NCBI GenBank assembly: GCA_963827465.1 | Contig: CAWHBC010000030.1 | Location: 1,422-65,421 of the forward strand | DNA length: 64,000 bases | Source: an uncultured Alphaproteobacteria bacterium | GTDB lineage: Bacteria > Pseudomonadota > Alphaproteobacteria > Rhizobiales > Xanthobacteraceae | Direction of reading: 5' to 3' | Part shown: positions 7,563 through 63,579 of the stretch, piece after piece | Layout of the letters: each line of letters begins with the position of its first letter | Numbering within the stretch: position 1 is the stretch's first letter | The notes under the pieces: model-generated | The model's database searches: none | Told to the model about the DNA's origin: nothing | Seen by the model: only the letters and a program-made list of their open reading frames with translations | Program-made: the position numbers and the translations under genes

Positions 7563-8351
7563 TCAGGCTTTGGCAAGCTCGGCCTTGACCCGCACCAGCA
7601 TCGCCTCGACGGCGGCTTTGACGGCAGCGAGTTTTTGCGTATCGCGCGAACGCATCACGACATTGGTATTGGCCTTGCCGTTGTCATCCTGAAACGGGTA
7701 GGAGCCGATGATCACGTCGGGATTGGCCTTGGCGATCACGCCGAGCTCGGTGCCGATATCGCCCTCCCGGCAATCGGCGCGCACCGTTTCCGAGAGCATG
7801 CGAATGCCGGTCTTCAGCGAAGGCGTGACATAGTCCAGCATCGCCTGCATCACGCTCGGGATGCCCGCCATGACGATGACATTGCCGATGCGGAAGCCCG
7901 GCGCGCCCGAGACTTTGTTGAGCACCAATTCGCCGCCGACCGGAACGCGGGTCATGCGCATGCGGGCCTCGTTCATCGTGCCGCCGGTCGCGGCGGCGCG
8001 CGCCCGCATGATCTCGACCGCGCGGGGATGATATTCGAGCGCGACGCCGAACGCCTTGGCGACGCAGTCGGCCGTAATGTCGTCGTGGGTCGGGCCGATG
8101 CCACCGGTGGTAAAGACATAGGTGTAACGGGAGCGTAGTGCATTGAGAGCCGAGACGATCTCCGGCTCTTCGTCGGGAACGACGCGCACTTCCTTGAGAT
8201 CGATCCCGATATTGGTGAGGTATTCGGCGATATAGCCGATATTCTTGTCCTTGGTCCGGCCCGATAGGATCTCGTCGCCGATCACGAGGACCGCGGCGGT
8301 CACAATCCCGGCGCCGGTCTTGCCCGCCCCATCGGCCACGCTGTCGGACAT
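7563..8351 (-). CDS. CinA-like molybdopterin-binding (MoCF_BD) domain protein
   Basis: Internal ATG of ORF 7563..8609 gives MSDSVADG... Carries VLVIGDEILSGRTKDKN and FTTGGIGPTHDDIT. The upstream extension of the ORF is Arg-rich nonsense. Confidence 0.85.
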   Translation of the reverse strand: MSDSVADGAGKTGAGIVTAAVLVIGDEILSGRTKDKNIGYIAEYLTNIGIDLKEVRVVPDEEPEIVSALNALRSRYTYVFTTGGIGPTHDDITADCVAKAFGVALEYHPRAVEIMRARAAATGGTMNEARMRMTRVPVGGELVLNKVSGAPGFRIGNVIVMAGIPSVMQAMLDYVTPSLKTGIRMLSETVRADCREGDIGTELGVIAKANPDVIIGSYPFQDDNGKANTNVVMRSRDTQKLAAVKAAVEAMLVRVKAELAKA

Positions 8352-10290: not shown

Positions 10291-10321
10291 CCGACCGAGC
10301 GAGTAAGAGCTGAGACACGCC

Positions 10322-11263: not shown

Positions 11264-11371
11264 ACGGGAATCGGTCGCCGGCCGTTCGGTAATCGGAAAA
11301 GCAACGCGACATGGCGCGTGATGTCGTCTATCGTCTGACTGCCGATTGCCGATGGCCGACTTCTGATCCAC

Positions 11372-12178
11372 ATGCGTATCCATATCGCCCACCGCAATGT
11401 CTACCGCTACGATCCGCCGGCGACCGGTGTGATCCAAGTGCTGCGGCTCACCCCGCGAAATTACGAAGGCCAGTACGTCGCCAATTGGCGCATCGACGTG
11501 TCGGCCGATGCCAGGCTGGCGGCGCACGAGGATGCGTTCGGCAATATCACCCACACCTTCTCCGCCGACGGACCTTTTAGGGAGCTTGTCGTCCAGGTCG
11601 ACGGCGTGGTCGAGACGCAGAACGCCAATGGTATCGTGCGCGGCACTGTCGAACGTTTCGGACCGAGTCTGTTCCTGCGCGACACCGCCTTGACCCAGGC
11701 CGATCCGGCGATTCGCAGCTTCGCCCACAGCACCGCCACGGCACAGGAGGGCGGCGTATTGGCGCAGCTCCACGCCCTGCTCGACCGGCTGCATGACGAA
11801 ATGCACCACGAGGCCGATGACGCTCCGGGCGCCGCCAACGCCGCCGAGGCGTTTGCCCGCAAAGGCGGGCCGTCGCGGGACTTGAGTTACATTTTCATCT
11901 CGGCGGCCCATGCGCTCGATATTCCGGCGCGCTTTGTCGGCGGCTATTATCGCGGCGACGACGCCGTTGCCGCGCAGCCGGCGGCGCATGCCTGGGTCGA
12001 GGCATCGGTGCCGGACCTCGGCTGGGTTGCCTTCGATCCGGCCAACGGTTTCTGCCCGACCGAAGGTCATGTGCGGGTTGCCGTGGGGCTCGATGCGCTC
12101 GGGGCGGCGCCGGTGCGCGGCATGCGATACGGCCCCGGCGCCGAAACCCTCGCGGTGGCGATCAAAGTCGGCCAATAA
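11372..12178 (+). CDS. transglutaminase-like cysteine protease family protein
   Basis: 268 aa. N-terminal bacterial transglutaminase-N pattern (MRIHIAHRNVYRYDPP) and C-terminal HAWVEA...GWVAFDPANG core. Confidence 0.85.
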   Translation: MRIHIAHRNVYRYDPPATGVIQVLRLTPRNYEGQYVANWRIDVSADARLAAHEDAFGNITHTFSADGPFRELVVQVDGVVETQNANGIVRGTVERFGPSLFLRDTALTQADPAIRSFAHSTATAQEGGVLAQLHALLDRLHDEMHHEADDAPGAANAAEAFARKGGPSRDLSYIFISAAHALDIPARFVGGYYRGDDAVAAQPAAHAWVEASVPDLGWVAFDPANGFCPTEGHVRVAVGLDALGAAPVRGMRYGPGAETLAVAIKVGQ

Positions 12179-12247
12179 GGGTTCGATCCGCCTACGCCGC
12201 CGGACCGGGATGTTGTATAGACCCCGCTGTTGGGGAGCGCTGAGTCG

Positions 12248-12997
12248 ATGACCTATTGCTGCGGCATATTGGTGCGCGAAGGGCTGGTGATGTTCGCCGA
12301 TACGCGGACCAATGCCGGCGTCGACAACATCTCGACTTTCCGCAAGCTGCATATTTTCAAGGACCCCAAGAAGCGGGTGATGGCGATCGCGTCGGCGGGC
12401 AATCTTTCGATCAGCCAGTCGGTGGTCAGCATCCTCAACGAGGGCTACGAGAATCCGGAGACCGGCGAGCACGAAACGCTGATGAACTCGCCGACCATGT
12501 TCCAGGCCGCCCAGCGCGTCGGCCACGTCATCCGCATGATCCACGCCACCGAAGGCAAGGCGCTCGAAGCTTCCGACGTCAGCTTCGACGTCTCGTTCCT
12601 GTTCGGCGGCCAGATCATGGGCGAACGCATGCGGCTGTTCATGATCTATTCGGCCGGAAACTTCATCGAATGCACCACCGACACGCCTTACCTGCAGATC
12701 GGCGAGCACAAATACGGCAAGCCCGTGCTCGATCGCGCCATCACCTATGAAATGGACATTTACGACGGGCTGAAGGTCGGCCTGGTTTCGATCGATTCGA
12801 CCATGCGGTCCAATCTGTCGGTCGGCCTGCCGATCGACGTCCTGGTATTGCGCCGCGACACCTGCGACCCGGAACTCATTTACCGCATCGAGCCCGGCGA
12901 GCCGTATTTCACCGACCTGCGCGAGCGCTGGTCGTCGGCGCTGCGCGCCGCCCATATCGGCATTCCGCGCCCGCCTTATCTCAACAAGCGGGCCTGA
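12248..12997 (+). CDS. Anbu (ancestral beta subunit) proteasome-type peptidase
   Basis: MTYCCGILVREGLVMFADTRTNAG places Thr directly after the initiator Met (Ntn nucleophile position). Proteasome beta-like length. It is the last gene of the four-gene cluster. Confidence 0.8.
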   Translation: MTYCCGILVREGLVMFADTRTNAGVDNISTFRKLHIFKDPKKRVMAIASAGNLSISQSVVSILNEGYENPETGEHETLMNSPTMFQAAQRVGHVIRMIHATEGKALEASDVSFDVSFLFGGQIMGERMRLFMIYSAGNFIECTTDTPYLQIGEHKYGKPVLDRAITYEMDIYDGLKVGLVSIDSTMRSNLSVGLPIDVLVLRRDTCDPELIYRIEPGEPYFTDLRERWSSALRAAHIGIPRPPYLNKRA

Positions 12998-13158
12998 GCG
13001 CGCGCTTTGCCGGCCGGCCATCGTTTACGTCTCGTTAACGACGGCGGCCGGAAGGACGCGCGATACAGCCTGGGCGCGCGTCCGCGGTCATATTGCAAGC
13101 CATTGGAAAGCTTTGCTCTCTAAGTTCCCTCCCGAGCCAGTGACGCAAAGGGTGGAAC

Positions 13159-15420
13159 GTGTTGCCTTCGGCGCGTTTGCAAATCGCCGGGGAAAGGCAA
13201 GGGTCGCGGTGGGATCAGGCGCGCCTGGTTCTTCCGCTCGGCGCTATCGTTGTGATTGCGATCGTCTGCATCGTCGTCGCGGTGGTCGCTTCCGCCCGGC
13301 GCGCCGACGAGGTTGCCTTCAGCACCCAGCGCGAACTGATCAAGCAGTCGATCTTCGAGCACGGCCAGCACGCCCTGCACCTGGCCGAAGGCGTCACCGC
13401 CGCACCGCAAGCCGTCGCCAAGATACGCGACGGCTTCGACCCGCAATGGGTCGATCAACAGGTCGGCTCCTGGCTGGCAAAGTCTGATTTCGACCTGGTG
13501 GCGATCGTCGGCCCCGACGACAATCTCGAATTCAGCCGTTACCTCGACGGCGTCTTTAATCCGCCGACGGATCTGGCCGTGCAATTCAAGCCGACGGTCG
13601 ATCTGTTGCGCGGCCGGCTCACGGCGTTTCCCGGGCAGAGCCTGCCGCTGATCGAGGGCCAAAATCCGGCGGATCCGGGCTACAAGACCGTCCTCATCGA
13701 AAGCTTTCTCGACCGGCCGGTCTATATCACGGCCATCGCGGTCGGCTCCGCCGCCGATTTGGCGCATGGCAACGGCCATGCCCCGATCGTGCTCGCGGTC
13801 AAAAGCCTCGGCAGCCGCCTGTTGACCAAGATCGGCAGCCATTTGCAGTTGGCCAATCTGCACATGATCGAGGACCCGAGACAGGCCGGCAACGACAGCA
13901 CCGTCGATCTCGCCGATCCGCAGGGCACCGCCGTCATCCGCCTGGCGTGGCAGTCCACCCAGCCCGGCGGCGCCATCGTCGTTAGCGTCGTGCCTTTTGT
14001 CGCGGTGGCCCTTGCCGGATTCGCGCTGTTTATGTGGCTCGGCATCCGCTACATGCGGCGCACCGCCGCCGACCTCGCCGCCGGCGAGCGCCAGCTTCGC
14101 CACCTGGCGCTGCACGACCCGGTCTGCGGCCTGCCCAACCGCATTTATTTCGGCGAGCGGCTCGAACAGAGCATCAACAATGTGCGCGGCGGCGGCCTGT
14201 CCGCCGCGGTTTTCTACATCGACCTCGATCACTTCAAGGACGTCAACGATACGCTCGGCCACCATATCGGCGACGAACTGATCCTCAACGTCACCCAACG
14301 CCTGAGCCGCATCATGCGCGGCGACGACCTCGTCGCCCGGCTCGGCGGCGACGAATTCGCCATCATCACCACCTGCGCCTCGGATTCCTATTCGCTGCAG
14401 GCGATCGCCGGGCGCATCATCGCCGCGGTCTGCGCGCCCTACGCCATCTCCGGGCATAACATCATCATCGGCGCCTCGATCGGGATTGCCGTGATCGACC
14501 GCCGCGTCGGCGACGCCGCCGATATTCTGCGCTACGCCGACATGGCGCTCTATCGCGCCAAGAACGAGGGCCGCAACCGCGCCTGCATCTACGACGCGGC
14601 GATGGACGCCGATCTGTCCAGCCGCAAATTGCTCGAAGGCGATCTGCTGCAGGCGATCAAGACCGACGGCCTGCGCTCGCACTATCAGCCGATCGTCAAC
14701 GCCGCCGGCGATACCGTGGTCGGCGTCGAGGCGCTGGCGCGCTGGCAGCATCCGACCCACGGCGACATTCCGCCGTCGCGCTTCATTCCGATCGCCGAGC
14801 ATTCGGGACTGATCATCGAGCTCGGCGAGTGGATGCTGCGGCGCGCCTGCCTCGACGGCCGCAACTGGCCGAATCTCGCCGTCTCGGTGAACGTGTCGCC
14901 GCTGCAATTCCGCCGTTCCGACTTCGTCGAAGTGGTCGAGCGCATCCTTACCGAGACCGATTTCGACGCCAGCCGCCTCGAGCTCGAGCTCACCGAGAGC
15001 ACGCTGCTCGGCAACCTGGAGACCGCCGAACTGTCGATGCTCCGGCTGAAGGCGATCGGCGTGCGCTTCGCACTCGACGATTTCGGCACCGGCTATTCGA
15101 GCCTGCTCTATCTGCGGCGCTTCCCCTTCGACAAGCTCAAGATCGATTCGAGCTTCGTGCGCGCGATCGAGAAGGCGCCGGATGCGGCGGCCATCGTGCA
15201 CGCGGTGGTGTCGCTCGGCCGCGGTCTCGGCATGAAGGTCACCGCGGAGGGCGTGGAGACCGCCGAGCAGCATCTGTTCCTGCGCGCCGCCGGCGTGCAT
15301 TCGATGCAGGGCTACCGCTTCGGCAAGCCCGGCCCCGCGGGCGAGATCGACGACCGGCTGGCCGCCCCCGACGCCTACCGCGTCGGCAGCCCCGACAAGG
15401 AAGTCGCGCTGGCGAGCTAG
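13159..15420 (+). CDS. membrane-anchored GGDEF-EAL (diguanylate cyclase/phosphodiesterase) sensor protein
   Basis: 753 aa. Two transmembrane segments flank a periplasmic-type domain. Carries RLGGDEFAII and EALARWQHP...DDFGTGYSSL motifs. Confidence 0.9.
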   Translation: MLPSARLQIAGERQGSRWDQARLVLPLGAIVVIAIVCIVVAVVASARRADEVAFSTQRELIKQSIFEHGQHALHLAEGVTAAPQAVAKIRDGFDPQWVDQQVGSWLAKSDFDLVAIVGPDDNLEFSRYLDGVFNPPTDLAVQFKPTVDLLRGRLTAFPGQSLPLIEGQNPADPGYKTVLIESFLDRPVYITAIAVGSAADLAHGNGHAPIVLAVKSLGSRLLTKIGSHLQLANLHMIEDPRQAGNDSTVDLADPQGTAVIRLAWQSTQPGGAIVVSVVPFVAVALAGFALFMWLGIRYMRRTAADLAAGERQLRHLALHDPVCGLPNRIYFGERLEQSINNVRGGGLSAAVFYIDLDHFKDVNDTLGHHIGDELILNVTQRLSRIMRGDDLVARLGGDEFAIITTCASDSYSLQAIAGRIIAAVCAPYAISGHNIIIGASIGIAVIDRRVGDAADILRYADMALYRAKNEGRNRACIYDAAMDADLSSRKLLEGDLLQAIKTDGLRSHYQPIVNAAGDTVVGVEALARWQHPTHGDIPPSRFIPIAEHSGLIIELGEWMLRRACLDGRNWPNLAVSVNVSPLQFRRSDFVEVVERILTETDFDASRLELELTESTLLGNLETAELSMLRLKAIGVRFALDDFGTGYSSLLYLRRFPFDKLKIDSSFVRAIEKAPDAAAIVHAVVSLGRGLGMKVTAEGVETAEQHLFLRAAGVHSMQGYRFGKPGPAGEIDDRLAAPDAYRVGSPDKEVALAS

Positions 15421-15528
15421 GCGCCTGTCGTGCCCGCGAAAGCGGGCATCCAGTAATCGCCGGCCGTGGTGTACAATCGCAAGCTTCGAGGATACTGGAT
15501 CGTCCGCCTTCGCGGACGATGACAAGCG

Positions 15529-16312
15529 TTGAGCAATGGGGAGGCGCACTTGGCCGCAAAAAAGGTTGCAGTGGTGACGGGAGCCGGGACCGGAGTCGGC
15601 CGGGCGGTGACGCTGGCGCTGATGAAGGAGGGCTATGCGGTGGTGCTGGCCGGCCGGCGCAAGGACATGCTGGAAGCGGTCGCCAAGGAAGGCGCCCAGA
15701 CCCCCGGCGAAGCGCTGTGCGTGCAAACCGACGTCGCCGATCCGGCCTCGATCAAGGCGCTGTTCGCCAAGGTCAAGGAGACCTATGGCCGGCTCGATCT
15801 TTTGTTCAACAATGCCGGCATCGGCGCCCCGGCGATGCCGATCGAGGACATCCCGTTCGACAAATGGCAGGCTGTCGTCGCCACCAATCTCACCGGCGTG
15901 TTCCTGTGCACCCAGGAAGCGGTCAGGATCATGAAGGCGCAAAACCCGCGCGGCGGGCGCATCGTCAATAACGGCTCGATCTCGGCGCACACGCCGCGCC
16001 CGGGCGCCGCGCCTTATTCCGCCACCAAGCACGCCGTCAGCGGGCTCACCAAGCAGACCGCGCTCGACTGCCGCGGCTACGACATCTGCTGCGGCCAGAT
16101 CGACATCGGCAATGCCGCGACGCCCGCTCACCGACCGCATGGTGCAGGGCGAAGGCGTGCTGCAGCCCGACGGCACCAAAAAGATCGAAGCGCGCATGGC
16201 CGCCGACGACGTCGGCCGCGCCGTGGTCTACATGGCAAGCCTGCCGCTCGACACCAACGTGCTGTTCATGACGGTGATGGCCAATCTGATGCCGTTCGTC
16301 GGGCGGGGGTAA
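15529..16312 (+). pseudogene. short-chain dehydrogenase/reductase (SDR), frame broken near 16123-16127
   Basis: Carries [16 protein letters not shown] and YSATKHAV. After IDIGNAATP the frame gives Arg-rich nonsense. ORF 16112..16312 supplies the expected end ([16 protein letters not shown]...[16 protein letters not shown]). One extra base in the run cgcccgctc explains the break. Confidence 0.8.
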
Positions 16313-25494: not shown

Positions 25495-26014
25495 CTATTT
25501 CAGGCTGACGGTAAAGACGCCGTCGAATTTGGTCCGGTCGGCGGCGGGAGTTCTCGGCATGGCCTGCCGCCAAAGCCGGCGCCACGGCTGCGGCCGCCGC
25601 CGCGGCATGCTGGCGTTCCAAAAACTGGGCTGGCTTGGTCATGAACGCCGTGTCGATCTTCAGCCTGAGCGCTTGCGCATCGAACGGCTTGACGATGTAG
25701 CTGTTGGCGCCCGCTTTCTTCGCGGCGATGACATCGTCCGATTTGGATTCACCGGTTACGACCACGGGAATGCGATTGAGGCACGGATCGCTGCGCATCT
25801 CATGAAGCAATTCGCGGCCGGTCACCGGCGTCATGTCCCAGCTCGAAATGACGAGGCTGTAGTGCCGCTCGCGCATCTTGGCGAGCGCTTCGCTGCCATC
25901 GGCCGCATCGTCGACGTCAAGGCAGCGTAATCGCCGCAGCAGGGCGCGGATAATCCGAATCTCCGCTTCGTGGCCGTCGACCACGAGCACCGGCGCGAAT
26001 GAATCGAATGCCAT
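25495..26014 (-). pseudogene. CheY-like single-domain response regulator with extended tail, probable frameshift near 25546-25548
   Basis: VLVVDGHEAE...LVISSWDMTPVTG...YIVKPF. As read, the ORF (25307..26032) runs 170 nt antisense into nupC with low third-position GC. A frame one base over has high GC3 and ends DRTKFDGVFTVSLK* at 25495-25497. Confidence 0.7.
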
Positions 26015-26217
26015 GTTATGCCACCGGCTCATGCAATCGGTGCATCACGGTCGCGCCCTGGGCGTCGAAAACGGCCGGACCCTCCAGGCGATCCCAGTGT
26101 ATCGTCGGCGAAGCTACACCAATAGATTGAACCACAGGTAAAGGGCGGTTGGCGATCAGCCCGGGGCAGAGCAATCTCTGAGCCCGGTATCGCCCTGCAA
26201 TCCAGGGGAGAATCGCT

Positions 26218-26244
26218 CCCGGATCGCGCCAGGCGCGATCCGGG
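26218..26244. repeat. perfect 13-bp-arm hairpin cccggatcgcgcc-a-ggcgcgatccggg
   Basis: Read directly from the sequence, 9 nt downstream of the usg stop. There is no U-tract, so it is REP-like rather than a classical terminator. Confidence 0.8.
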
Positions 26245-26252
26245 CTAGGAAT

Positions 26253-26522
26253 TCAATGCAGCCGGAATTCGCCGTCCACGGCGCGGATTTCGGCCGGCTT
26301 GATCAGCTTGGCATGGGCCACGGTGACCGAGTGCAGCGGCCCTTCAAGCTTCTCCAGCCAGAAATTGAGGAATTTGTTGAGCACCGGGAAGTTCGGGCAG
26401 AGGTCGTAATCCTGCCAAACATAGGTCTGTAATAGCCACGGGTGGTCGGGCCGCCGGTAGAGGATATTGGCGGTGGTCAATCCGTAGCCTTCGAGCTGAC
26501 TGCGAAACTCTTTCGACACCAT
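26253..26522 (-). CDS. usg: Usg family protein
   Basis: MVSKEFRSQLEGYGLTTANILYRRPDHPWLLQTYVWQDYDLCPNFPVLNKFLNFW matches the Usg protein pattern from memory. Confidence 0.8.
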   Translation of the reverse strand: MVSKEFRSQLEGYGLTTANILYRRPDHPWLLQTYVWQDYDLCPNFPVLNKFLNFWLEKLEGPLHSVTVAHAKLIKPAEIRAVDGEFRLH

Positions 26523-26766
26523 AGTGCCCTCCAATCCCGGCACGGGAATGTTTCGAGACTCGCTTTGCTATTGCAAGCCTCAAAAGTGAATAAGTTGTGT
26601 ACTTTCAAGGCACTAGCAGCATCCTTGCGGCGGTGCTAACAGCGCGATCGGAACTACACCGTTCCGATTCCAACGGAACTTTCTGGGACAAGTTTCCTGG
26701 TCTGGAACCGGAATATTTCGCCGCAGCGTTTGGAACCCGACGGAATAATCCGCCCGCCAATTCTTG

Positions 26767-26927: not shown

Positions 26928-27242
26928 ATGAAGTTTCGTCCGCTTCACGATCGCGTCGTCGTCAAGCGCATCGATGCCGAGGAAAAGACCACCGGCGGCA
27001 TCATCATCCCGGACACCGCCAAAGAGAAACCCTCGCAGGGCGAAGTCATCGCCGTCGGCCCGGGCGGCCGCGACGAGGCCGGCAAGCTCATCCCGATCGA
27101 CATTAAAGTCGGCGAGCGCGTGCTGTTCGGCAAATGGTCGGGCACCGAGGTCAAGATCGACGGCGAGGATCTCCTGATCATGAAGGAGTCCGACATCATG
27201 GGCGTGCTCGACGAGCCGGTTGCCCGCAAGAAGGCCGCGTAA
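26928..27242 (+). CDS. groES: co-chaperonin GroES
   Basis: [46 protein letters not shown], with AGGAGG upstream. Confidence 0.97.
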
Positions 27243-27359
27243 TCAGAAAACCCGTCATCCTGAGGTGGCCGCGCAGCGGCCCTCGAAGGATGACATTCCG
27301 AAACAGCACCCTTCGAGGCGAGCTTCGCTCGCACCTCAGGGTGACGAACCAGGAGTTAA

Positions 27360-29000
<1,641 letters not shown>

Positions 29001-29025
29001 ATCCATCTCCGAGTCAATCTACGAA

Positions 29026-49398: not shown

Positions 49399-49635
49399 CA
49401 AGACCCGGGCCCCGCATGGCGCAACGTCATAGAACCCGGGCAGCGCCAAGGCCTTGATTTCGATCAAAAGCAGCCGAGCCACGACGGCCCCAAACTAGGG
49501 GCGGAACCGGCCCATCAGGGCGGTTGTTGGCTATCGACAGAGGCCCGGATTGCGCTCGTGCGGAATCGGGGTACAGGTCAATCCGGAAGAATCGACCGCC
49601 TCGGCGAAGATCAGGAGACCGCTTTGACCGCCACC

Positions 49636-50940
49636 ATGACTGCCCCGCTCCCGACGCGCAGCGCGCAGCCGTGGTGGCGGCAACTGTGGGTCTGGGTGCT
49701 GATCGGCATGGCCGCGGGCGTCGCGCTCGGAATGGCCGCGCCCAATCTGGCAATCGCCATGGGACCGCTCGGCGACGCTTTCATCAAGCTGATCCGCATG
49801 CTGATCGCGCCGATTATTTTCTGCACGGTGGTGACCGGCATCGCCCGCATGGCGGACATGGCGAAGATCGGCCGGGTGGCGATCAAGGCGCTGGTCTATT
49901 TCGGAGTGATGACGACCGTGGCGCTGATCATCGGCCTGGTCGCCGTCAACCTGTTGCGCCCCGGCGTCGGCATGAATGTCGACGTCTCAAAGCTCAATCC
50001 AAGCGTCATCGAACCCTACGTCAAGCTGACCCACCAAGTCGGCGCGGTGCCGTTTCTGATGAACATCATTCCGAACAGCTATGTCGGCGCCTTCACCGAG
50101 GGCAACATTCTGCAGGTGCTGTTCGTCGCCATCCTGTCCGGCTTCGCGCTGGTCTTTGTCGGCGACAAAGCAAAGCCGCTAGTCGACCTGATCGATATCG
50201 CCGCCAAGATGGTGTTTCGCATCGTCGGCATGGTGATGTGGACGGCGCCGCTCGGCGCCTTCGGCGCGATCGCGTTCACCGTCGGCAAGTTCGGCGTCGG
50301 CTCGCTCGCTTCGCTCGGCTATCTGTTGCTCGGCTTTTATCTGACCTGCATCGTCTTCATCATTGTCGGTTTCGGCCCGGTGGCGCGGCTGTGCGGGTTC
50401 AGCCTTTGGCGCCTGATCCGCTATATCAAGGAAGAGTTGCTGATCTGCATCGCGACGACATCGTCGGAGACCGTGCTGCCGCGCATCATCGCCAAGCTCG
50501 AACAGCTCGGCTGCGAGCAAAGCGTAGTCGGGCTGGTGGTGCCGACCGGCTATTCGTTCAATCTCGACGGCACGTGCCTTTATCTCGCCACCGCCACGGT
50601 CTTTCTCGCTCAGGCCACCAACACCCCGCTCGATCTGTGGCATCAGATCGGATTGCTCTTGATATTGCTGCTCACCTCGAAGGGCGCGGCGGGCGTCGCC
50701 AGCGCGGCCTTCGTGGTTTTGGCCGCGACGCTCGGTGCGGACTCGACCATTCCGGTCGCCAGCGTGGCGCTGATCCTCGGCATCCATCGCCTGATGTCGC
50801 AGGGCCTGACGCCGACCAATCTGCTCGGCAATGCCGTCGCCACCATCGCCATGGCCAAGTGGGAAGGCGCGCTCGACGAGACGCGCCTGCATAGCGAGCT
50901 CGACAGCAACCCGGATCGAAACGTGCCGGTGGCCGCTTAG
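49636..50940 (+). CDS. dctA: C4-dicarboxylate / dicarboxylate-amino acid:cation symporter (DctA)
   Basis: ATG at 49636 in ORF 49558..50940. FIKLIRMLIAPIIFCTVVTGIA, TSSSETVLP and VPTGYSFNLDG motifs. Confidence 0.9.
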   Translation: MTAPLPTRSAQPWWRQLWVWVLIGMAAGVALGMAAPNLAIAMGPLGDAFIKLIRMLIAPIIFCTVVTGIARMADMAKIGRVAIKALVYFGVMTTVALIIGLVAVNLLRPGVGMNVDVSKLNPSVIEPYVKLTHQVGAVPFLMNIIPNSYVGAFTEGNILQVLFVAILSGFALVFVGDKAKPLVDLIDIAAKMVFRIVGMVMWTAPLGAFGAIAFTVGKFGVGSLASLGYLLLGFYLTCIVFIIVGFGPVARLCGFSLWRLIRYIKEELLICIATTSSETVLPRIIAKLEQLGCEQSVVGLVVPTGYSFNLDGTCLYLATATVFLAQATNTPLDLWHQIGLLLILLLTSKGAAGVASAAFVVLAATLGADSTIPVASVALILGIHRLMSQGLTPTNLLGNAVATIAMAKWEGALDETRLHSELDSNPDRNVPVAA

Positions 50941-54077: not shown

Positions 54078-55283
54078 TTACGCCACGCTTTGCATCCAGG
54101 CTTTCGGATCACCGGCCCGGTCGCCGCCGCCGGACAGCGCGGCAACCAGGGCGCCCATGGATTCCAGGTTGTGGATGGCGCGGAATTCGTCGACATGCGG
54201 CAGCATCGCCTTGATGCCGCGGGCGCGCGCCTCGAAGCCCTCGAAGCGGAGCAGCGGATTGAGCCAGATCAGCCGCCGGGCGGAGCGGTGCAGGCGATCG
54301 ATCTCGAAGGCGAGCGTATCGTCGGAGTCGCGCTCCAGCCCATCGGTGATCAGCAGCACGATGGCACCCTGGCCGAGCACGCGCCGCGCCCACTGCTTGT
54401 TGAAGACGTGCAGCGACGAGGCGATGCGGGTGCCGCCCGACCAGTCCGGCACGGCGCCGGAGCAGGCCGCCAGGGCATCGTCGGGGTCGCGCTCGCGCAG
54501 CGCGCGGGTGACATTGGACAGCCGCGTGCCGAACAGAAACGTCGACACCCGCTTGCGCGCATCGGTCAGCGCGTGGAGGAAATGCAGGAAGATGCGGCTG
54601 TACTGACTCATCGAGCCGGAGATATCGAGCAGCGCCACGATCGGCGGCGGCTTGGTCTTCGGTCCGATGAAGCGCAGATCGATGAAGTCGCCACCGCCCT
54701 TCATGCTGGCGCGCAGCGTGCGGCGGATATCGATGAAGTGACCGTGGACGTGCGGGGCGAGCCGCCGCGTGCGCACTTCGGCGAGCGGCAAGACCAGGCG
54801 CTTCATGGCATCCTTGGCTTTGGCGATCTCGGCAACCGTCATCTGGGCGAAATCCTTGCGCTGCAGCACCTCGCGATCCGACACCGTCATGCGGGCGTCG
54901 AGCTCAATCTCGCTTTCCTTTTTCAGCTTGTCGTCAAGGCCGGCGAACAGCGCCTCGTGCACGCGCGTGGCGCCGGCCTGGGGCGCCTGCGGCGGCGCCG
55001 GCGACTGCGGCAGCATCATCGCCAGCAGTTGATCGACATAGCCGCGGCGGCGGAAGAAGATGCGGAACGCCTGATCGAACAGGATCGCGTGCTCGTGCCG
55101 TTTCACGAATACGGCGTGCAGCGTCCAGTAAAAATCATCGCGGGTGCCGACGCCGGCGGTCTTTAACGCCTCCAAGGCGTCGAGCACCGCGCCGGGGCCG
55201 ACCGGAATCCCGGCGGCGCGCAAGGCGCGGGCGAAATAAAGCACGTTCTCGGCAAGCCGGCCGGATGGTTGGGGCTCGGTCAT
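54078..55283 (-). CDS. coxE: VWA domain protein, CoxE-like
   Basis: 401 aa. The C-terminal VWA has a MIDAS-like LLDISGSM. Sits in the cox accessory gene context. Confidence 0.85.
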   Translation of the reverse strand: MTEPQPSGRLAENVLYFARALRAAGIPVGPGAVLDALEALKTAGVGTRDDFYWTLHAVFVKRHEHAILFDQAFRIFFRRRGYVDQLLAMMLPQSPAPPQAPQAGATRVHEALFAGLDDKLKKESEIELDARMTVSDREVLQRKDFAQMTVAEIAKAKDAMKRLVLPLAEVRTRRLAPHVHGHFIDIRRTLRASMKGGGDFIDLRFIGPKTKPPPIVALLDISGSMSQYSRIFLHFLHALTDARKRVSTFLFGTRLSNVTRALRERDPDDALAACSGAVPDWSGGTRIASSLHVFNKQWARRVLGQGAIVLLITDGLERDSDDTLAFEIDRLHRSARRLIWLNPLLRFEGFEARARGIKAMLPHVDEFRAIHNLESMGALVAALSGGGDRAGDPKAWMQSVA

Positions 55284-55439: not shown

Positions 55440-56684
55440 GTGTCGCGCATCTTCAAAGTCCTGATTTCTCCGTTCACCACGTTTCGTGCCGCGCCTCCCG
55501 CGGCGCGGGTCGGTTCGTTCCTGTTTTTTGTCGCCAGCGTCGCCGACGGCACGCTGATGCCGTTTTTCCCGCTATGGGCGCGCAACGACGCCGGCATACC
55601 CGTGCAATATATCGGTTTGCTGCTCGGATGCTATGCGGGCGGCGAACTCTTGGCCACGCCCTTTGTCGGCGGGATTGCCGACCGCGTCGGGCGGCGGCCG
55701 GTGCTTCTGGCCTCGACGACCGGCATCGGCATCGGCTTTCTGCTGCTGTACTGCGCTCCGGGCATTATCGCCACCGCGGGGTCGCTTCTCGTCATCGGCT
55801 TGTTCGAAAGCGTTCTCCACCCCACCGCCGCGACCGTGATTACCGACGTGGTACCGGTGGAAGACCGCCGCGGCCATTTCGCCATGACGCGGATGATGTC
55901 GAACGCCGGCCGGATCATCGGTCCGGCGCTCGGCGGCGTGCTGGCGCTGTGGTCGCTGCACCTCGTCTTCTTCGGTGCCGCCGCCACCATCCTGACCGGC
56001 GCGGTCGCGGTCGCGGCGCTGTTGCCGGAGACATGGCACAAGACTTGGCACGGCGCAGCCGAGCGCGAGGAGGACGATGACGACGAAAGCCTCACCGCGC
56101 TCGGCGCGGCGCTGCGCGACCGGCGGCTTGCCGGGTTGCTGTTGTCGATATCCGCACTCGAAATCGCCGTAAGCTGGATCGAGGCCGTCACGCCCCTTTA
56201 TGCCACCGCGGCAGGCGCGGTGACACCGACCGGCGTCGGGCTGCTGTTCGCTTATGCGGGCGTCGTCGGCGTCATCTTCCAGTTGCCGGTGACGCAGGCC
56301 TCGCAGCGCGTCAGCGGCTTCAGTACCGTCTTGGCGGCAGGCGCCATCGAGGCGATCGGTTTCGCTTTTCTGTTGCCGGCACCGGCGCTGCCGCTTCTGA
56401 TCGCAGCCATCACCTGCATGTCGTTTGCACGCATGCTGTCAGGCCCGCTGGTTCAGGCCATCGTGTCGGAGCTGGCGCCGCGCAACGCGCAGGCGACCTA
56501 TCAAGCCGCATTCTCGGTGGTGTTCGATCTGAAAGACGCCGCCGGACCCGCGGTCGGGACCTGGCTCTACGCGATCTCGGCCGTGCTGCCCTGGGGCACC
56601 GGGATTGCGGTTTCGCTTGTCGCTTCGGGCGCACTGGCCGTCGCAACGCGGCGGCACGAAGCAGAAAAAGCCAAGACGCCGTGA
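55440..56684 (+). CDS. MFS transporter
   Basis: 414 aa with a GTG start. GGIADRVGRRPVL loop and 12 hydrophobic segments. It lies on the opposite strand inside the cox accessory cluster. Confidence 0.8.
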   Translation: MSRIFKVLISPFTTFRAAPPAARVGSFLFFVASVADGTLMPFFPLWARNDAGIPVQYIGLLLGCYAGGELLATPFVGGIADRVGRRPVLLASTTGIGIGFLLLYCAPGIIATAGSLLVIGLFESVLHPTAATVITDVVPVEDRRGHFAMTRMMSNAGRIIGPALGGVLALWSLHLVFFGAAATILTGAVAVAALLPETWHKTWHGAAEREEDDDDESLTALGAALRDRRLAGLLLSISALEIAVSWIEAVTPLYATAAGAVTPTGVGLLFAYAGVVGVIFQLPVTQASQRVSGFSTVLAAGAIEAIGFAFLLPAPALPLLIAAITCMSFARMLSGPLVQAIVSELAPRNAQATYQAAFSVVFDLKDAAGPAVGTWLYAISAVLPWGTGIAVSLVASGALAVATRRHEAEKAKTP

Positions 56685-56696: not shown

Positions 56697-57629
56697 CTAC
56701 TCGGCCGCGCGCAAGTCCGACTTCACCTCGTCGAGCAGCTCCTTCACTTTTGAGCCTTCGAGCTTGGCGATGTCGTCCTGATATTTGAGGAGCACGCCGA
56801 GGGTATCGGACACCGTTGCCGGATCGAGCGCCACCACGTCGAGCTCGGACAGCGCCGCGGCCCAATCGAGCGTCTCGGCGACGCCGGGCGATTTGAACAA
56901 ATCCTGCTTGCGCAGGCGCTGCACGAAAGCGACGACCTGCTCCGTGAGCTTCTTGCTCACGCCGGGTATCCTTGTGCGCACGATGGCAAGCTCGCGCTCG
57001 GCCGTCGGGTAACCGACCCAGTGGTAGAGGCAGCGGCGCTTGAGCGCATCATGCACCTCGCGGGTGCGGTTCGAGGTAATGACGACGACGGGCGGATGCG
57101 CGGCCTTCACCGTGCCCATTTCCGGGATGGTGATCTGAAAGTCGGCCAAGACTTCAAGAAGGTATGCCTCGAACGCTTCGTCGGTGCGGTCGATCTCGTC
57201 GATCAGCAGCACCGGCGCCCCGGCGGTATCGGGCTCGAGCGCCTGCAGGAGCGGCCGCTTGATCAGAAACCGCTCGGAGAACACGTCGTGCTCCAGCCGG
57301 GCGCGGTCGTGCTCGCCTTCGGCTTCGGCGACGCGGATGGCGATCATCTGCGCGGCGTAATTCCACTCATAGACGGCGGTGGCGACGTCGAGGCCCTCAT
57401 AGCATTGCAGCCGGATCAAATGGCGGCCGAGCGTCGTCGACAACACTTTGGCAATCTCGGTCTTGCCGACGCCGGCCTCGCCTTCAAGGAAGATGGGCCG
57501 GCCCATCTTGAGCGCCAGAAACAGTACGGTGCCGAGCGAGCGGTCGGCGAGATAACCGGCCTCGGCCAAGAGATTGACGGTGGCGTCGATCGAGGCCGGC
57601 AGCGGGCGGGGCGAAGAAACCGGGTTCAT
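56697..57629 (-). CDS. coxD: MoxR-family AAA+ ATPase, CoxD-like
   Basis: ATG at 57629 (MNPVSSP...). Walker A GEAGVGKT and Walker B LLIDEIDR. The ORF extension to 57752 is AT-rich and unlikely to be coding. Confidence 0.9.
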   Translation of the reverse strand: MNPVSSPRPLPASIDATVNLLAEAGYLADRSLGTVLFLALKMGRPIFLEGEAGVGKTEIAKVLSTTLGRHLIRLQCYEGLDVATAVYEWNYAAQMIAIRVAEAEGEHDRARLEHDVFSERFLIKRPLLQALEPDTAGAPVLLIDEIDRTDEAFEAYLLEVLADFQITIPEMGTVKAAHPPVVVITSNRTREVHDALKRRCLYHWVGYPTAERELAIVRTRIPGVSKKLTEQVVAFVQRLRKQDLFKSPGVAETLDWAAALSELDVVALDPATVSDTLGVLLKYQDDIAKLEGSKVKELLDEVKSDLRAAE

Positions 57630-57787
57630 GCCGCCTGGATATAGGCCTTCGGGGCCGCGATCAAATCCACCCTCCCAGGCGGAGTTTGGAGATTGGGGTT
57701 GTGTCCCTTTATTTAGGACTATGTCCTTTTTATCTCGACACTCGTCTCTCACACGATTACGTGCGCTGATGGTTGGAGGGGAACCGA

Positions 57788-59019
57788 ATGCTCCATCAAG
57801 TCTGGCGTCTCAGTGAACCGGGCAACGACAATCTCGGTCTCGCTTGCGATGAGCGGGGTTTGGTCCTGGGCCGCACGCCGCTGATCGAACGGCGGGATGG
57901 GCGCTTTAGGGTGATGCAGGCGAGATCGAATGCTTGTTCGACCGGGCCTACGGCCGCGCGTTACCACTCCAACGCATCATGTCTGGGCTTGCCACGGTGG
58001 CTAACGCGTTGAACGCCGACGATGCGTGCCTGGCGAGCATCGCTGCGGTCCATTTGCAGATTCCCGATCTCCCTAGCCACGCCGCGCGCGACGATATGGA
58101 AGCGGCGGATCTGCTTATAAAATCCGGCGATTGGAATCCTGCGCTACACCCGCGCGCTGGAACGCCGCCCAATCCCGGCTGGTTTGCTCCGACCGGCGGC
58201 GCCGACCAAGAGCTGTCGCCGGTCAGAACGGCGGAGAACCTATCGCCGAATCAAGCTTCGGATGCACCGATCGCCGGCGGCAATCGGGTCAGGCTACCGT
58301 CCGGTCCGAAACGCATCGACGAACTGGCGGATTTCGCGGAGTGGCTTGCTAATGCGACCCCTCAAGACGAAGGCGCGATCCGGGCGGAAATTAAAAGATA
58401 CTATGCCGATGTCGGCTGGCAGGCCGCCGCAGACGATCTCAACAGCAAACTGAGCGTCGTCCTGCGGCCCGGCGTAACTCAGGCCACGCGGCAAAGCATC
58501 CTCAACAGCATCGACCTCTACACCCGCGTCGACCCAGCGGAATACGTCGGCACGCGCGACTTTCTCAATGCCGTAGTCCTAGCAAGCGCAGGGCTCGCGG
58601 CAGGTGGTGCCGCGGCCGACGAACCCTCACCGGTTTGGCAATTGGGCTGGGCTAAACGCGGTCAAATGATCAATGAGAAACTCGGCGAGCCCACTTTCCC
58701 CGCTAATTATCCAATCATTGATAAAATCCCTAACGGCATCGCCACCAGCGTTAAATCGATCGACCTCAATGCGGCGACGTATCAGAACGATATAAGTCTA
58801 GCGAATAGATTGCTCCAATACGTTGAAGACGTAAGGGACTTTGACGGTGCCACCTGGGGAGGCAAGGAGGTGAGGTCCGATCAAATTGCCGGTTGGGCGG
58901 TCCAACTGATCGTTCCCAAGGGCAGCACGACCGCCGCACAACGAGCTATCATCGACCAAGTCCGCGAGATAGCGAAACTCAGTAACAGGCCCGTCGATAT
59001 CATCGTCACAGAATTCTAG
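57788..59019 (+). pseudogene. large hypothetical protein with C-terminal PD-(D/E)xK-like (toxin-type) module, one frame break near 57917-57924
   Basis: GGAGGG Shine-Dalgarno 7 nt before the ATG at 57788. ORF 57773..58012 (MLHQVWRLSEPGNDNLGLACDERGLVLGRTPLIERRDGRFRVMQA) joins ORF 57934..59019 (EIECLFDRAYGRALPLQRIM...) after a 1-nt shift. C-terminal residues read GQMINEKLGE...FPANYPIIDK...GIATSVKSIDL. Lower GC than the flanks. Confidence 0.6.
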
Positions 59020-59028
59020 GAATCCGCA

Positions 59029-59514
59029 ATGTTGTACAAATGCTATTTGAAAAAGCATACGGTTTATCTGCCAACTACGGTGAATCAGGGAATTGCCGTT
59101 TACATGGATGTCGATCCCGTCACGGTGGTCCCGGTCGCGGATACGGATCACTTGCGACGAGCCATGCTCAATACAATCCCCAAAGAAAATCCATTTCGCG
59201 CGCCGACAGTCGAGGACGCGCGCAAGCCGCCGGTCATGTTGAAATATACCGGCGACAAAAGCTGGTCGGCATTCATGCGCGGTGCGTCAGTTTGGTCGAT
59301 CTACGAAAAGGACGGAATCTTCCAGATCGAACCCTATCGCGTGCATTCGAAGGGCTATTGGGAGCCGGATCGCGAGAACTTCATAAAATTTCCATCCGAA
59401 ACGTCGATCAACGTCGTGATTGATCGCATGATCGCGACTTTGCAAAGCGCGGCGAGCGCTTCGGGCAAATCATCGTCGCCGCCGATACGTAAAAAGAGTA
59501 GTTCAGGGCGTTAA
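59029..59514 (+). CDS. 161-aa hypothetical protein, candidate cognate immunity/antidote partner
   Basis: Starts 10 nt after the upstream stop with an AGGAA Shine-Dalgarno. AT-rich codons. No signal peptide or transmembrane segment. Ser/Lys-rich tail. Confidence 0.55.
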   Translation: MLYKCYLKKHTVYLPTTVNQGIAVYMDVDPVTVVPVADTDHLRRAMLNTIPKENPFRAPTVEDARKPPVMLKYTGDKSWSAFMRGASVWSIYEKDGIFQIEPYRVHSKGYWEPDRENFIKFPSETSINVVIDRMIATLQSAASASGKSSSPPIRKKSSSGR

Positions 59515-59529
59515 ATCGTGGTCTGGCCG

Positions 59530-60342
59530 TTAGTCCGCCGGCTTGCCGATCGCCTCGGCGACAGCACGGCGCGCCAGCACGCTGACCAGATGTGCGCGAT
59601 ATTCGGCGCTGCCGTGGATGTCGGAGTTCATGCCGTCCGCAGGGATGGTCAGGCCTTCGAGCGACTTCGGGGCGAAGCGCTTCTTCAGCGCCTCCTCGAA
59701 CGACGGCACGCGGAACACACCATTCGAGCCGGCGCCGGTGACGGCGACGCGGATCTCGCTGCCGCGTTTGGCGACGAACACGCCGACCAGCGCGAAGCGG
59801 GACGCCTGATTGCGGAATTTCTGATAGCCGGCCTTCTTCGGCAGCGGGAAGATCACCTTGGTGATGATCTCAGCCGGCTCGAGCGCCGTGGAGAACATGC
59901 CGGTGAAGAAGTCGTCGGCCTTGATACGCCGCTTGTTGGTGACGATGGTGGCGCCGAGACCGAGGCAGGCGGCCGGATAATCGGCGTTCGGATCGTTATT
60001 GGCGATCGAGCCGCCGATGGTGCCGCGATGGCGCACCGCGGGGTCGCCGATCAGCCCGGCGAGCTTGGCGAGCACCGGCGCGGCCTGCTGCACCACCGTC
60101 GAGGTGTTGACTTCGTTATGCGTGGTCATGGCGCCGATGGTCAGGTTGCGGCCGCTCTGCTCGATGCCGGACAAGCCCTCGATCTTGGTCATGTCGACGA
60201 TCTGCGGCGGCCCGGCGAGCCGTAGCTTCATTGTCGGCAGCAAAGTCTGGCCGCCGGCAAGCAATTTGGCGTCTTCGTTCTTGCCGAGGAGGCCTGCGGC
60301 CTGCCGCACGGTTTGCGGGCGATGGAAGGTGAAAGCGTACAT
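59530..60342 (-). CDS. coxM: FAD-binding medium subunit of a form-II CO dehydrogenase / xanthine dehydrogenase-family enzyme
   Basis: 270 aa. [15 protein letters not shown] and [21 protein letters not shown] Shine-Dalgarno. Confidence 0.9.
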
Positions 60343-60354: not shown

Positions 60355-62721
<2,367 letters not shown>

Positions 62722-62805
62722 GGTCGTTTCCTCCGGCATTGCCGCTCGGCAATGTCCTTGAAACTCAACTGCCCGCCGGCAGTGTTCTTTTTGCGTTTCT
62801 TCTCC

Positions 62806-63321
62806 TTATTCGGCGGCCTTGGTCGTAGCGGCGCTGCCGCGCATGGCCTTGGCCCCGGCGGCGATCGCCTTCACGATATTGTGGTAGCCGGTGCAGCGGC
62901 AGATATTGCCTTCCAGCTCCTCGCGGATGGTGCGATCTTCCAGATCGTTGCCCTTGCGCCGCACCATGTCGACTGCGGTCATGATCATTCCCGGCGTGCA
63001 ATAGCCGCATTGCAAACCGTGGTTCTCGCGGAAGGCCTCCTGCATCGGATGCAGCGGCCCGTCGGCGGGAGCCAATCCTTCAATGGTGAGAACGTTGGCG
63101 CCTTCGAGCTGAAGCGCCAGCACGGTGCAGGATTTGATCGCCTGACCGTTGACGTGGACGACGCAGGCCCCGCACTGCGAGGTGTCGCAGCCAACGTGAG
63201 TACCGGTCAGCCGCAAATTTTCGCGCAGCAATTGCACCAGCAATGTGCGCGGATCGACATTGGCGCTGATGGGTTTGCCGTTCACGGTCATGGAAACCGC
63301 TACCGTGTCGGTTGCCGCCAT
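62806..63321 (-). CDS. coxS: [2Fe-2S] small subunit
   Basis: The ATG at 63321 is preceded by GGAGGAG. Carries [12 protein letters not shown] and [10 protein letters not shown]...CRCTGY. Confidence 0.9.
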
Positions 63322-63579
63322 GGGACTCCTCCCCTTCAATATTCCGGTCAAACGTGACGATTCACCGGTTGTTCTGGCCCGCCGGCCAGGTCCCGTTACG
63401 AATTCGAGGCGATTTTTGCCGATTTCGTAGCTTGGAACAAGAATTACTCTGAACCGAGGGCCGCCTTTCGGTCAAGGGAGTTTCGCGATGGCCTCTGGCG
63501 GCGCAAGCCAGCACTACGGCAAGAGCGGCCTTCGAGAGCCGCCGAAACCGCGCGCCGGAAGACCCCCCGCCCGGCCAGG

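Follow-up and report, generated by a model that had tools for sequence, protein, structure and literature searches.

A probable polymorphic toxin–immunity gene pair inserted between coxD and coxM in uncultured Xanthobacteraceae

Organization of the locus

The window studied here, a stretch of 64,000 nucleotides (nt) on contig CAWHBC010000030.1 of an uncultured alphaproteobacterium affiliated with the Xanthobacteraceae (assembly GCA_963827465.1), contains a form-II-like cluster of CO dehydrogenase (cox) genes on the minus strand, among which coxM, coxD and coxE were confirmed by Pfam searches. Two open reading frames (ORFs) on the plus strand, here termed gene 1 and gene 2, lie between the minus-strand genes coxD and coxM (Table 1), just where an initial annotation, made from the sequence without database searches, had placed a toxin/immunity-like cassette. 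This earlier reading found support in all of its testable parts. The C-terminal domain of the gene 1 product and the gene 2 product are distant members of a known, structurally characterized toxin and immunity protein family, and the N-terminal carrier of the toxin represents a domain family that lacks an annotation and sets apart a large class of polymorphic toxins found in uncultured soil Alphaproteobacteria. Taken as a whole, the cassette is best explained as a polymorphic toxin–immunity module, an interpretation that we regard as fairly probable.

The ATG codon of gene 2 (59029) is situated 9 nt past the TAG codon of gene 1, and an AGGA sequence overlaps the latter, in agreement with the immunity position that had been attributed to gene 2. 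At the other end, only 15 nt separate the stop codons of gene 2 and coxM. A promoter scan detected no sigma-70 consensus in the intergenic region upstream of gene 1, and neither flanking repeats nor a mobile-element signature emerged when the surroundings of the cassette were scanned for repeats, promoters and terminators.

Table 1. Features of the gene pair and of the surrounding cox cluster (aa, amino acids; HMM, hidden Markov model; pLDDT, predicted local distance difference test; GC, guanine plus cytosine content)
Feature	Position	Strand	Evidence or remark
Gene 1, whole	57788-59019	+	ORF from ATG 57788, then ORF in another frame, 57934-59019 (361 aa)
Gene 1, 5' fragment, aa 1-41 and part of codon 42 (MLHQVWRL…RFRV), start of domain D1	57788-57912	+	matches N-terminus of 411-aa homologues
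Site of 4-nt deletion in gene 1 (CCGA in L090)	57912-57913	+	DNA alignment to relatives
Gene 1, rest of D1 (four strands and four helices in P0003 model)	57913-58119	+	domain HMM and model
Gene 1, predicted disordered linker with conserved motif WNPALHPRAGTPPNPGWFAPTGG (motif 58132-58200)	58120-58203	+	alignment and pLDDT
Gene 1, helical middle domain D2 (RIDELADF…IRAEIKRY…DPAEYVG)	58291-58551	+	domain HMM and model
Gene 1, hydrophobic Gly/Ala-rich segment FLNAVVLASAGLAAGGAAAD just ahead of toxin domain	58561-58620	+	sequence; GC falls from about here
Gene 1, C-terminal toxin domain, CdiA-CT EC869-o11/YpIII type, PD-(D/E)xK nuclease fold, including stop codon	58621-59019	+	PF21111 and Foldseek
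Candidate catalytic residues: Asp 58720-58722, Ser 58747-58749, Lys 58753-58755	58720-58755	+	invariance in homologues
Hypervariable segment DGATWGGKEVRSDQIAG, predicted beta-hairpin, candidate immunity-binding determinant	58843-58893	+	entropy and model
Gene 2, immunity protein, 161 aa	59029-59514	+	CdiI (EC869-o11 type) fold in model
Divergent intergenic region, coxD start to gene 1 start	57630-57787	.	GGAGG 9 nt upstream of ATG 57788
coxD-like MoxR/AAA_5 ATPase gene, left flank of insertion	56697-57629	-	Pfam AAA_5 and AAA
coxM, CO dehydrogenase flavoprotein subunit, right flank	59530-60342	-	Pfam FAD_binding_5 and CO_deh_flav_C
coxL	60355-62739	-
coxS-like	62806-63351	-
coxE	54078-55283	-	Pfam VWA_CoxE

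The toxin domain at the C-terminus of the gene 1 product

The C-terminal approximately 100 aa of the gene 1 product match Pfam family PF21111 (CDI_toxin_EC869_like) with 37.5 bits, the curated gathering cut-off being 27 bits. The score is 34 bits for P0003, an intact relative that is 89% identical to the gene 1 product, and 49-59 bits for distant family members. An AlphaFold2 model was derived for P0003, not for the window protein itself, from 49 homologues, and its toxin domain (aa 283-411) reaches a pLDDT of 72-91. When the whole model was compared with the Protein Data Bank (PDB) by Foldseek, the only matches at E < 1e-3 were 4g6u_A (E 3.5e-6) and 4zqu_A (E 9.6e-6), the latter with a template modeling (TM) score of 0.74 normalized to the target and a root mean square deviation of 3.2 Å over 123 columns; a weak sequence match to 4zqu_A was also found. 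Both are C-terminal toxin domains (CdiA-CT) of the contact-dependent growth inhibition (CDI) protein CdiA, which bears out the PD-(D/E)xK module previously proposed for this end of the protein. Identity with the solved CdiA-CT domains is low (about 24%).

Solved CdiA-CT domains of this type are Zn-dependent DNases of the PD-(D/E)xK superfamily with E177, D198, S209 and K211 as catalytic residues (PMC9086364). The three strings on which the nuclease proposal had been based, GQMINEKLGE, FPANYPIIDK and IATSVKSIDL, are indeed present and start at 58660, 58696 and 58738. Of the suggested order of an acidic residue, Asp and Ser-x-Lys, the latter two elements (D313, S322 and K324 in P0003 numbering) are invariant in the 49 homologues, and the first, the Glu of INEK, is not conserved. 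Ser and Lys coincide with the S-x-K of 4ZQU in the alignment, and the pairwise alignment places the invariant Asp three residues away from D198. Judged from these alignments, the invariant residues are candidates for a site of the D198/S209/K211 type. The tail would act as a DNase.

Among 41 aligned toxin tails, one of the runs of highest entropy coincides with a short hairpin that the P0003 model places between the helix at 336-351 and the strand at 370-377. This variable hairpin may be equivalent to the one used for beta-augmentation in 4G6U and 4ZQU.

Gene 2 encodes a probable immunity protein of the CdiI fold

The gene 2 product, the final approximately 17 aa of which form a low-complexity tail, did not match any sequence in Pfam, NCBIfam, PADLOC or the PDB and was therefore identified by fold comparison alone. 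Its AlphaFold2 model (pLDDT 87.6) retrieved five structures with Foldseek, 2gkp, 4zqv, 4g6u_B (E 3.7e-5, TM score 0.60), 4zqw_B and 4zqu_B, each with a probability of 1.00 and none other being significant. The alignments cover 159-171 columns against 161 residues at 10-16% identity. Four of the structures are CdiI immunity proteins belonging to this very toxin type, from strain EC869-o11 (4g6u_B and 4zqw_B), YpIII (4zqu_B) and Yersinia kristensenii (4zqv), and the fifth, 2gkp, is NMB0488, an uncharacterized protein from Neisseria; the immunity function earlier assigned to gene 2 is thus corroborated. As a PF21111/CdiA-CT tail is combined with a CdiI-fold partner, the pair in the window constitutes a distant homologue of a solved toxin–immunity pair. 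In the solved complexes, CdiI neutralizes its toxin by beta-augmentation of the toxin hairpin (PMC9086364).

The association of both proteins extends well beyond the window. A gene 2 homologue follows 8-20 nt downstream of every PF21111-type tail for which the sequence runs past the tail (about 60 loci), with the exception of L021, which features a partial tail and no gene 2 match. In 41 complete pairs, tail and immunity protein distances are correlated (r = 0.67; partial r = 0.59 given D1; permutation p = 0.001), and D1 and immunity protein distances are nearly independent once the tail is allowed for (partial r 0.15). Divergence is likewise greatest in tail and immunity protein, with mean distances of 0.52 and 0.50, respectively, vs. 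0.38 for D1.

A compositional break inside gene 1

The initial annotation had described the whole cassette as AT-rich and had counted 25 G+C in 60 nt at 59041-59100 against 38 in 60 at 59581-59640. Both counts are exact, and the description applies to the toxin tail together with gene 2 (58621-59514, 52.0% GC); it does not apply to the first two thirds of gene 1, which at 62.5% are close to the value for the window (64.3%). The 894-bp stretch of lowest GC content in the entire 64 kb resides inside the tail and gene 2 region (scan minimum 0.528 at 58601; mean 0.644, standard deviation 0.027). In all five relatives examined, the N-terminal part of the toxin gene is likewise near host level and the tail plus immunity gene range from 0.49 to 0.58, the drop starting at the boundary between D2 and the tail as it does in the window. 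The dip is limited to the tail and gene 2 and hence marks a compositional break within gene 1, at the border of the toxin domain.

The N-terminal carrier and its place in a polymorphic toxin family

In the P0003 model, the N-terminal domain D1 is folded over aa ~16-115, with a pLDDT of 80-90 over aa 21-110. It is followed by a disordered stretch (aa 116-166, pLDDT < 50) that holds the motif noted earlier as conspicuous, by the helical domain D2 (aa 175-255, with helices across 179-268) and by a Gly/Ala-rich hydrophobic linker that may have a role in membrane translocation. In the linker motif WNPALHPR…PPNPGWF, the W, the H-P and the P-N-P-G-W-F are invariant in the 49 homologues, and D2 likewise contains many invariant residues. 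As had been stated before, the N-terminal approximately 270 aa do not fall into any recognized family: neither Pfam nor the PDB yielded a match. For D1 and the motif, searches of Pfam and of PDB sequences with single sequences or a profile returned noise only, Foldseek of the whole P0003 model retrieved no fold match for them in the PDB or in BFVD (predicted viral structures), and a literature search for the motif and the gene 1 family returned nothing relevant.

The N-terminal 220 aa of the gene 1 product match 489 clusters (50% identity) among 1.84 billion representatives. Domain HMMs distinguish three kinds of architecture in this family, the main one being D1-motif-D2-PF21111. In the second, D1 and the motif are joined to another middle region and other tails, and the third comprises more distant D1-D2-PF21111 proteins in which EPRDxxGRWT replaces the motif. 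This replacement was seen in P0374, P0386, P0351, P0359, P0361 and P0334 (e.g., YNPDEPRDERGRWTTGG), in P0374 at the extreme N-terminus, and the two forms resemble versions of a single short linear motif, NPxx(H/E)PRxxxG(R/x)(W/F).

Among 52 long family members, Pfam assigned PF21111 to 23 and WHH, colicin-DNase, DUF4329 and cytidine-deaminase domains to one each; one further member gave a Tox-REase-7 match below the cut-off. By sequence, the remaining, unannotated tails form some ten groups that are unrelated to each other. Tails other than PF21111 are followed by other families of small ORFs, which differ with the tail. The variable C-termini that had been named beforehand as proof of a polymorphic toxin are thus present on one and the same N-terminus. 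Duplicated immunity genes occur in L007, L013, L020, L079 and L089. In L016 (7900-16400), three full toxin–immunity pairs are arranged in tandem with an additional D1 fragment, and in L043 (10000-13900) a full gene is succeeded by two orphan tail/immunity modules, arrays of a kind known from CDI and Rhs loci. With its constant N-terminus, swapped tails, matched downstream partners, arrays of orphan modules and multiple immunity genes, and co-variation of tail and partner, the gene 1 family falls under the definition of polymorphic toxin systems given by Zhang, Aravind and colleagues (2012; PMC3482391).

Two variations were observed in addition. In P0379, P0385 and P0388, D2 is fused to one or two gene 2-like domains and the nuclease domain is lost or truncated; these may be degenerate toxin genes that read through into the immunity gene. 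A set of relatives termed type B (P0291, P0301, P0305, P0306, P0320, P0338 and P0356) have a second middle module in common (FWSN…W…E.VPEYDLESG..VGERPRW.AIAPY), after which come a hydrophobic Gly/Ala-rich segment of about 35 aa, a possible membrane-translocation element, and a deaminase, WHH or REase-like tail.

Distribution of the family and turnover at the coxM-coxD junction

In a set of 185,579 species, each represented by one genome, 160 encoding stretches were detected, 79 of which were listed as loci. All 79 stem from metagenome-assembled genomes (MAGs), mostly labeled as Xanthobacteraceae or uncultured Alphaproteobacteria, and the other bins among them comprise a few Stellaceae, single Hyphomicrobiaceae and Rhizobiaceae and one member of the Verrucomicrobiia, represented by a 2-kb contig. 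A genome may harbor up to six loci. A few family members thus carry non-alphaproteobacterial labels, such as the contig of 2077 bp binned as Verrucomicrobiia (L039) and P0006, which one source assigns to 'Candidatus Binataceae'. The latter is encoded on a contig of 131 kb (L003), where its cox surroundings are typical of Xanthobacteraceae. Such labels probably reflect binning errors, not wide transfer.

The pair resides between coxD and coxM not only in the window, but also in L001/L002, L003-L006, L007, L012, L013, L014, L047, L072 and L090, such that the cassette is present in several related species-level genomes; orthologues of coxD flank it in L001, L003, L007, L012-L014, L047, L072 and L090. 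More distant members are found in unrelated contexts, e.g., in L008 between genes for an aldehyde dehydrogenase and a 2-oxoacid dehydrogenase E1 component. When metagenomes were searched with CoxD from the window, 34 related contigs exhibited an empty junction with only 86-290 bp between coxM and coxD, 16 of them encoding a CoxD at least 88% identical to that of the window, in line with the insertion that had been postulated. It follows that the pair is not a constant feature with native base composition, as some relatives do not have it and tail and immunity gene are low in GC where it is present. The exact boundaries of the insertion could not be placed, as an alignment of the empty-site spacers to the window failed owing to their divergence.

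Occupied junctions are not uniform either. The PF21111 type is present in the window, L001, L003, L007, L012-L014, L047, L072, L090 and L093. L030 and L105, and likely also L098, the contig of which ends before coxM, have a short-tail type together with a partner of 190 aa, and L095 has a P0282-type tail with a 131-aa partner. Empty sites and alternative occupants together identify the cassette as an insertion and the junction as a hotspot of tail/immunity turnover. Nine further contigs (L103, L133, L136, L141, L145, L147, L155, L161 and L166) have a gap of ~670-960 bp between coxM and coxD that holds other cargo. An ORF of about 200 aa, glyoxalase/VOC-like by eye, stands alone at the junction in L103 (4366-4974, minus strand) and beside a toxin cassette in L095 (2967-3557, minus strand), showing that this site accepts cargo other than toxin cassettes as well.

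That the pair occupies precisely this junction in no fewer than nine related genomes or contigs raises the question whether the two genes might instead be CO dehydrogenase accessories, i.e., a domesticated nuclease-fold protein with a partner in cox expression or maturation, kept for the sake of that role. A cox-related function was rejected on account of the 34 related cox clusters without the pair, which effectively refute it, and further observations point the same way: distant homologues occur in unrelated contexts, other toxin/partner types take the place of the pair at the same junction, and the pair is oriented opposite to the cox genes, has a low-GC tail and diverges far faster than they do. 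We consider such an accessory role extremely improbable. The different rates are apparent from L001, in which the Cox flanks are 98% identical to those of the window at the protein level, D1-D2 93%, and tail and immunity protein 80% each.

A four-nucleotide deletion in the window copy of gene 1

Gene 1 is not contiguous in the window. The initial annotation had inferred a break of 1 nt near 57920 and a product of about 410 aa once this was bridged; the predicted length is in accord with homologues of typically 411 aa, which read RFRVRDAGEIECLF across the break, and the break itself turned out to be a deletion of 4 nt directly after 57912. The window reads GGGT-GATG where metagenome contig L090 reads GGGT-CCGA-GATG, and L001, L003 and L007 also retain the additional 4 nt. 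The net effect on gene 1 is a -1 frame shift and the loss of one codon. L090 and the window share 99.1% identity along 6410 bp, and L090 encodes, at the same junction, an intact 411-aa allele (P0391) and a gene 2 of equal length (161 aa). Within the 1.9-kb cassette, both differ by six substitutions and by CCGA, which is the sole indel in the 6410 aligned bases and is located outside any homopolymer. By these alignments the break is real relative to the family, and recent. The toxin in the window is either freshly inactivated with immunity kept, or mis-assembled. Programmed frameshifting was considered and rejected, because the gap occurs neither in the 99.1%-identical contig nor in any other relative.

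A genuine inactivating mutation would mean that the toxin is dead here, possibly with a truncated, undeliverable product made from an internal start, and that the locus now acts as 'orphan immunity' against an intact toxin circulating in the population. Such a scenario fits the single indel in 6.4 kb, its position outside homopolymers and the intact state of both toxin tail and gene 2, as well as the fact that only a 336-aa product (P0001) is given for gene 1 in the source annotation. It also has counterparts elsewhere, as degenerate toxins with immunity kept are present in L030 and L087 and in the fusions P0379, P0385 and P0388. Against this stands the finding that about eleven other family loci show domains split between reading frames, which leaves room for assembly error, and we put the chance of a real inactivation at somewhat short of even.

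Proposed function and delivery

If the cassette is a polymorphic toxin–immunity module, an intact gene 1 would encode a modular toxin of approximately 411 aa, consisting of D1, the motif linker, D2, the hydrophobic Gly/Ala-rich segment and a nuclease at the C-terminus that is akin to the Zn-dependent DNases forming the CdiA tails in E. coli EC869-o11/TA271 and Yersinia pseudotuberculosis YPIII. Gene 2 would be translationally coupled to gene 1 and encode the cognate CdiI-fold immunity protein, which, by analogy with the solved complexes, may clamp the variable beta-hairpin of the nuclease by beta-augmentation. D1 and the motif would most likely serve as a handle recognized by an unlinked export or injection apparatus, with a type VI secretion system as the leading guess, and the toxin would kill neighboring bacteria that do not possess the matching immunity gene. 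Toxin tail and immunity gene are proposed to evolve and to be swapped as one unit on a conserved N-terminus, and the coxM-coxD junction would be a recurrent landing site for the family in one lineage of the Xanthobacteraceae.

Several observations weigh against this proposal. As the initial annotation had already remarked, inspection by eye reveals neither a signal peptide nor a transmembrane segment in D1. The gene 1 product does not contain a known trafficking domain (PAAR, VgrG, Hcp, MIX, LXG, filamentous hemagglutinin (FHA) repeats, MuF or Rhs), and the approximately 75 non-cox loci do not have any gene for secretion, phage or adaptor functions in common within 10 kb, their neighbors being metabolic. 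As neither D1 nor the motif has structural or sequence relatives, the role assigned to them is purely inferential. With regard to the toxin itself, gene 1 carries a frameshift in the window, E177, the helix Glu among the catalytic residues of EC869, is present in the window and not conserved in the family, and relatives of the PD-(D/E)xK toxin fold comprise tRNases as well as DNases (PMC9086364), which bears on the substrate. Finally, all listed genome loci being MAGs, an experimental system is not at hand.

Clustering of ORFs within ±10 kb of the same ~75 loci recovered the toxin and immunity families and generic paralogues (short-chain dehydrogenases/reductases, ABC transporters, CoxL-like, luciferase-like, patatin and UbiD proteins). 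One cluster of 'type I secretion ABC transporters' was rejected as a lead, because it represents a generic ABC family in inconsistent positions. In the window, secretion and phage genes were looked for in a spot check of ten large ORFs, five of which contain ordinary domains and five of which gave no match and are perhaps non-coding shadow ORFs.

The same absence of a signal peptide and of linked secretion genes would be expected of an intracellular toxin–antitoxin, addiction or abortive-infection module, the nuclease of which would be set free upon phage attack or stress with D1 and the motif acting as sensor or regulator. A compact two-gene cassette placed among housekeeping genes at varied sites and N-terminal domains of no known function are compatible with this idea. 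On the other hand, neither protein matches PADLOC at E ≤ 1, and the partner has the fold of CdiI proteins, which neutralize delivered toxins. The constant N-terminus with swapped tails, matched partners, orphan arrays and multiple immunity copies bears the signature of interbacterial polymorphic toxins, and the long hydrophobic segment ahead of nuclease or deaminase tails in type B relatives is what may be expected of translocation into a target cell. Furthermore, the same tail is attached to a hemagglutinin-repeat, CdiA-like protein. In view of these findings we deem an intracellular module improbable and retain delivery to other bacteria as the preferred explanation.

A more far-reaching possibility, which we put forward tentatively and hold to be rather doubtful, is that D1 together with the motif WNPxxHPR…PPNPGWF (variant EPRDxxGRWT) defines an undescribed class of polymorphic toxins with a new delivery route, be it a new handle for a known machine (the type VI system or another one) or a route not yet tied to interbacterial toxins, and that the linker motif is a docking or processing site.

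Comparison with known toxin systems

The closest counterparts of the pair are the CdiA-CT/CdiI complexes of EC869-o11/TA271 (4G6U) and YPIII (4ZQU). Tail and solved toxins are of the same Pfam family and fold, gene 2 has the same fold as CdiI, the Asp and Ser-x-Lys are conserved in the window family, and a variable hairpin is located where the solved toxins insert theirs into CdiI, a positional equivalence that is itself tentative. In contrast, identity is low (about 24% for the toxin, 10-16% for the immunity protein, for which a sequence-family match is lacking), the helix Glu is not conserved, and the carrier is a cytoplasmic-looking protein of 411 aa, whereas CdiA exceeds 3000 aa. The pair also differs from complete CDI systems (CdiB/CdiA/CdiI, type Vb), as PF21111 is the sole Pfam domain in the short gene 1 product, which matches no PT-VENN model and has no signal peptide by eye, and neither a cdiB-like nor an FHA gene was detected in the flanks examined.

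Phage and plasmid collections, when searched with the toxin (tblastn), produced matches to the tail domain only. In the plasmid collection, the closest annotated relative of the toxin tail is the C-terminus of a hemagglutinin-repeat protein encoded on a Rhizobium sp. CB3171 plasmid (NZ_CP121657.1), with 36.7% identity across aa 284-408 (E 5e-14). Its annotation suggests an exoprotein of the two-partner-secretion (CdiA-like) kind. What it has in common with the gene 1 product is the tail alone, and D1, the motif and D2 are without a match in it.

The MIX, FIX, RIX and PIX classes of 'orphan' type VI effectors, for which bioRxiv 10.1101/2023.07.16.549128 provides part of the background, resemble the gene 1 family in being mid-sized, in the lack of a signal peptide, in the combination of a conserved N-terminal marker with polymorphic C-terminal toxins, in an immunity gene directly downstream and in several scattered copies per genome away from the secretion cluster. 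A linear motif in a disordered linker and a hydrophobic segment ahead of a nucleic-acid-targeting tail are further points of likeness. However, D1 and the motif match no Pfam model (PAAR, MIX, FIX, etc.), and vgrG, hcp, PAAR or adaptor genes were not found within 10 kb of the loci examined. With marker domains and linkage looked for and not found, this is a resemblance and not membership.

The family agrees with polymorphic toxin systems at large (PMC3482391), such as Rhs, MafB and MuF toxins, in the constant N-terminus with recombining toxin cassettes, cognate immunity genes, orphan cassettes, arrays of several immunity genes and a compositional break at the toxin boundary. The N-terminal module, on the other hand, matches no Pfam model, was not recognized as one of the listed types (type II, type V, type VI and type VII secretion systems, PVC, PrsW, MuF and TcdB/TcaC), and has so far been encountered only in uncultured soil Alphaproteobacteria.

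Implications

The toxin/immunity type described here is well known from CDI systems and occurs in the present case on a small protein, the N-terminal two thirds of which match no library searched. The family is large, with 489 clusters, and seemingly confined to uncultured soil Xanthobacteraceae, Stellaceae and relatives. Should D1 and the motif indeed be an export handle, they would provide a search marker for the toxin/immunity arsenal of abundant soil bacteria, including tails that are as yet unannotated, and would point to the mode by which these bacteria deliver toxins. The coxM-coxD junction, with empty sites and at least three toxin/immunity types in close relatives, offers a clean natural case of cassette turnover at a fixed chromosomal site. 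For annotation purposes, such pairs of 'hypothetical proteins' can now be named.

Other features of the window

The second-lowest GC stretch of the window (~26000-26600, about 0.556) is mostly intergenic and surrounds an ORF of 96 aa (26253-26543, minus strand) that is Usg-like by eye, has a response-regulator gene as its neighbor and is situated upstream of groES/groEL (26928-29000), with no sign of an island. The ORFs at 10238-13021 (minus), 13120-16197 (minus), 6291-8138 (plus), 27336-29006 (minus) and 49524-50894 (plus) are among the longest in the window and have no Pfam match at E ≤ 1e-5. At least that at 27336-29006 is an antisense shadow of groEL. Long ORFs in this high-GC DNA are not dependable as genes.

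A transporter gene of the major facilitator superfamily (Pfam MFS_1; 55440-56684, plus strand) is located between coxD and coxE on the opposite strand. It is present in L001/L002 and not in L003 and L007, where coxD and coxE adjoin, and represents a second variable insertion within the same cox cluster.

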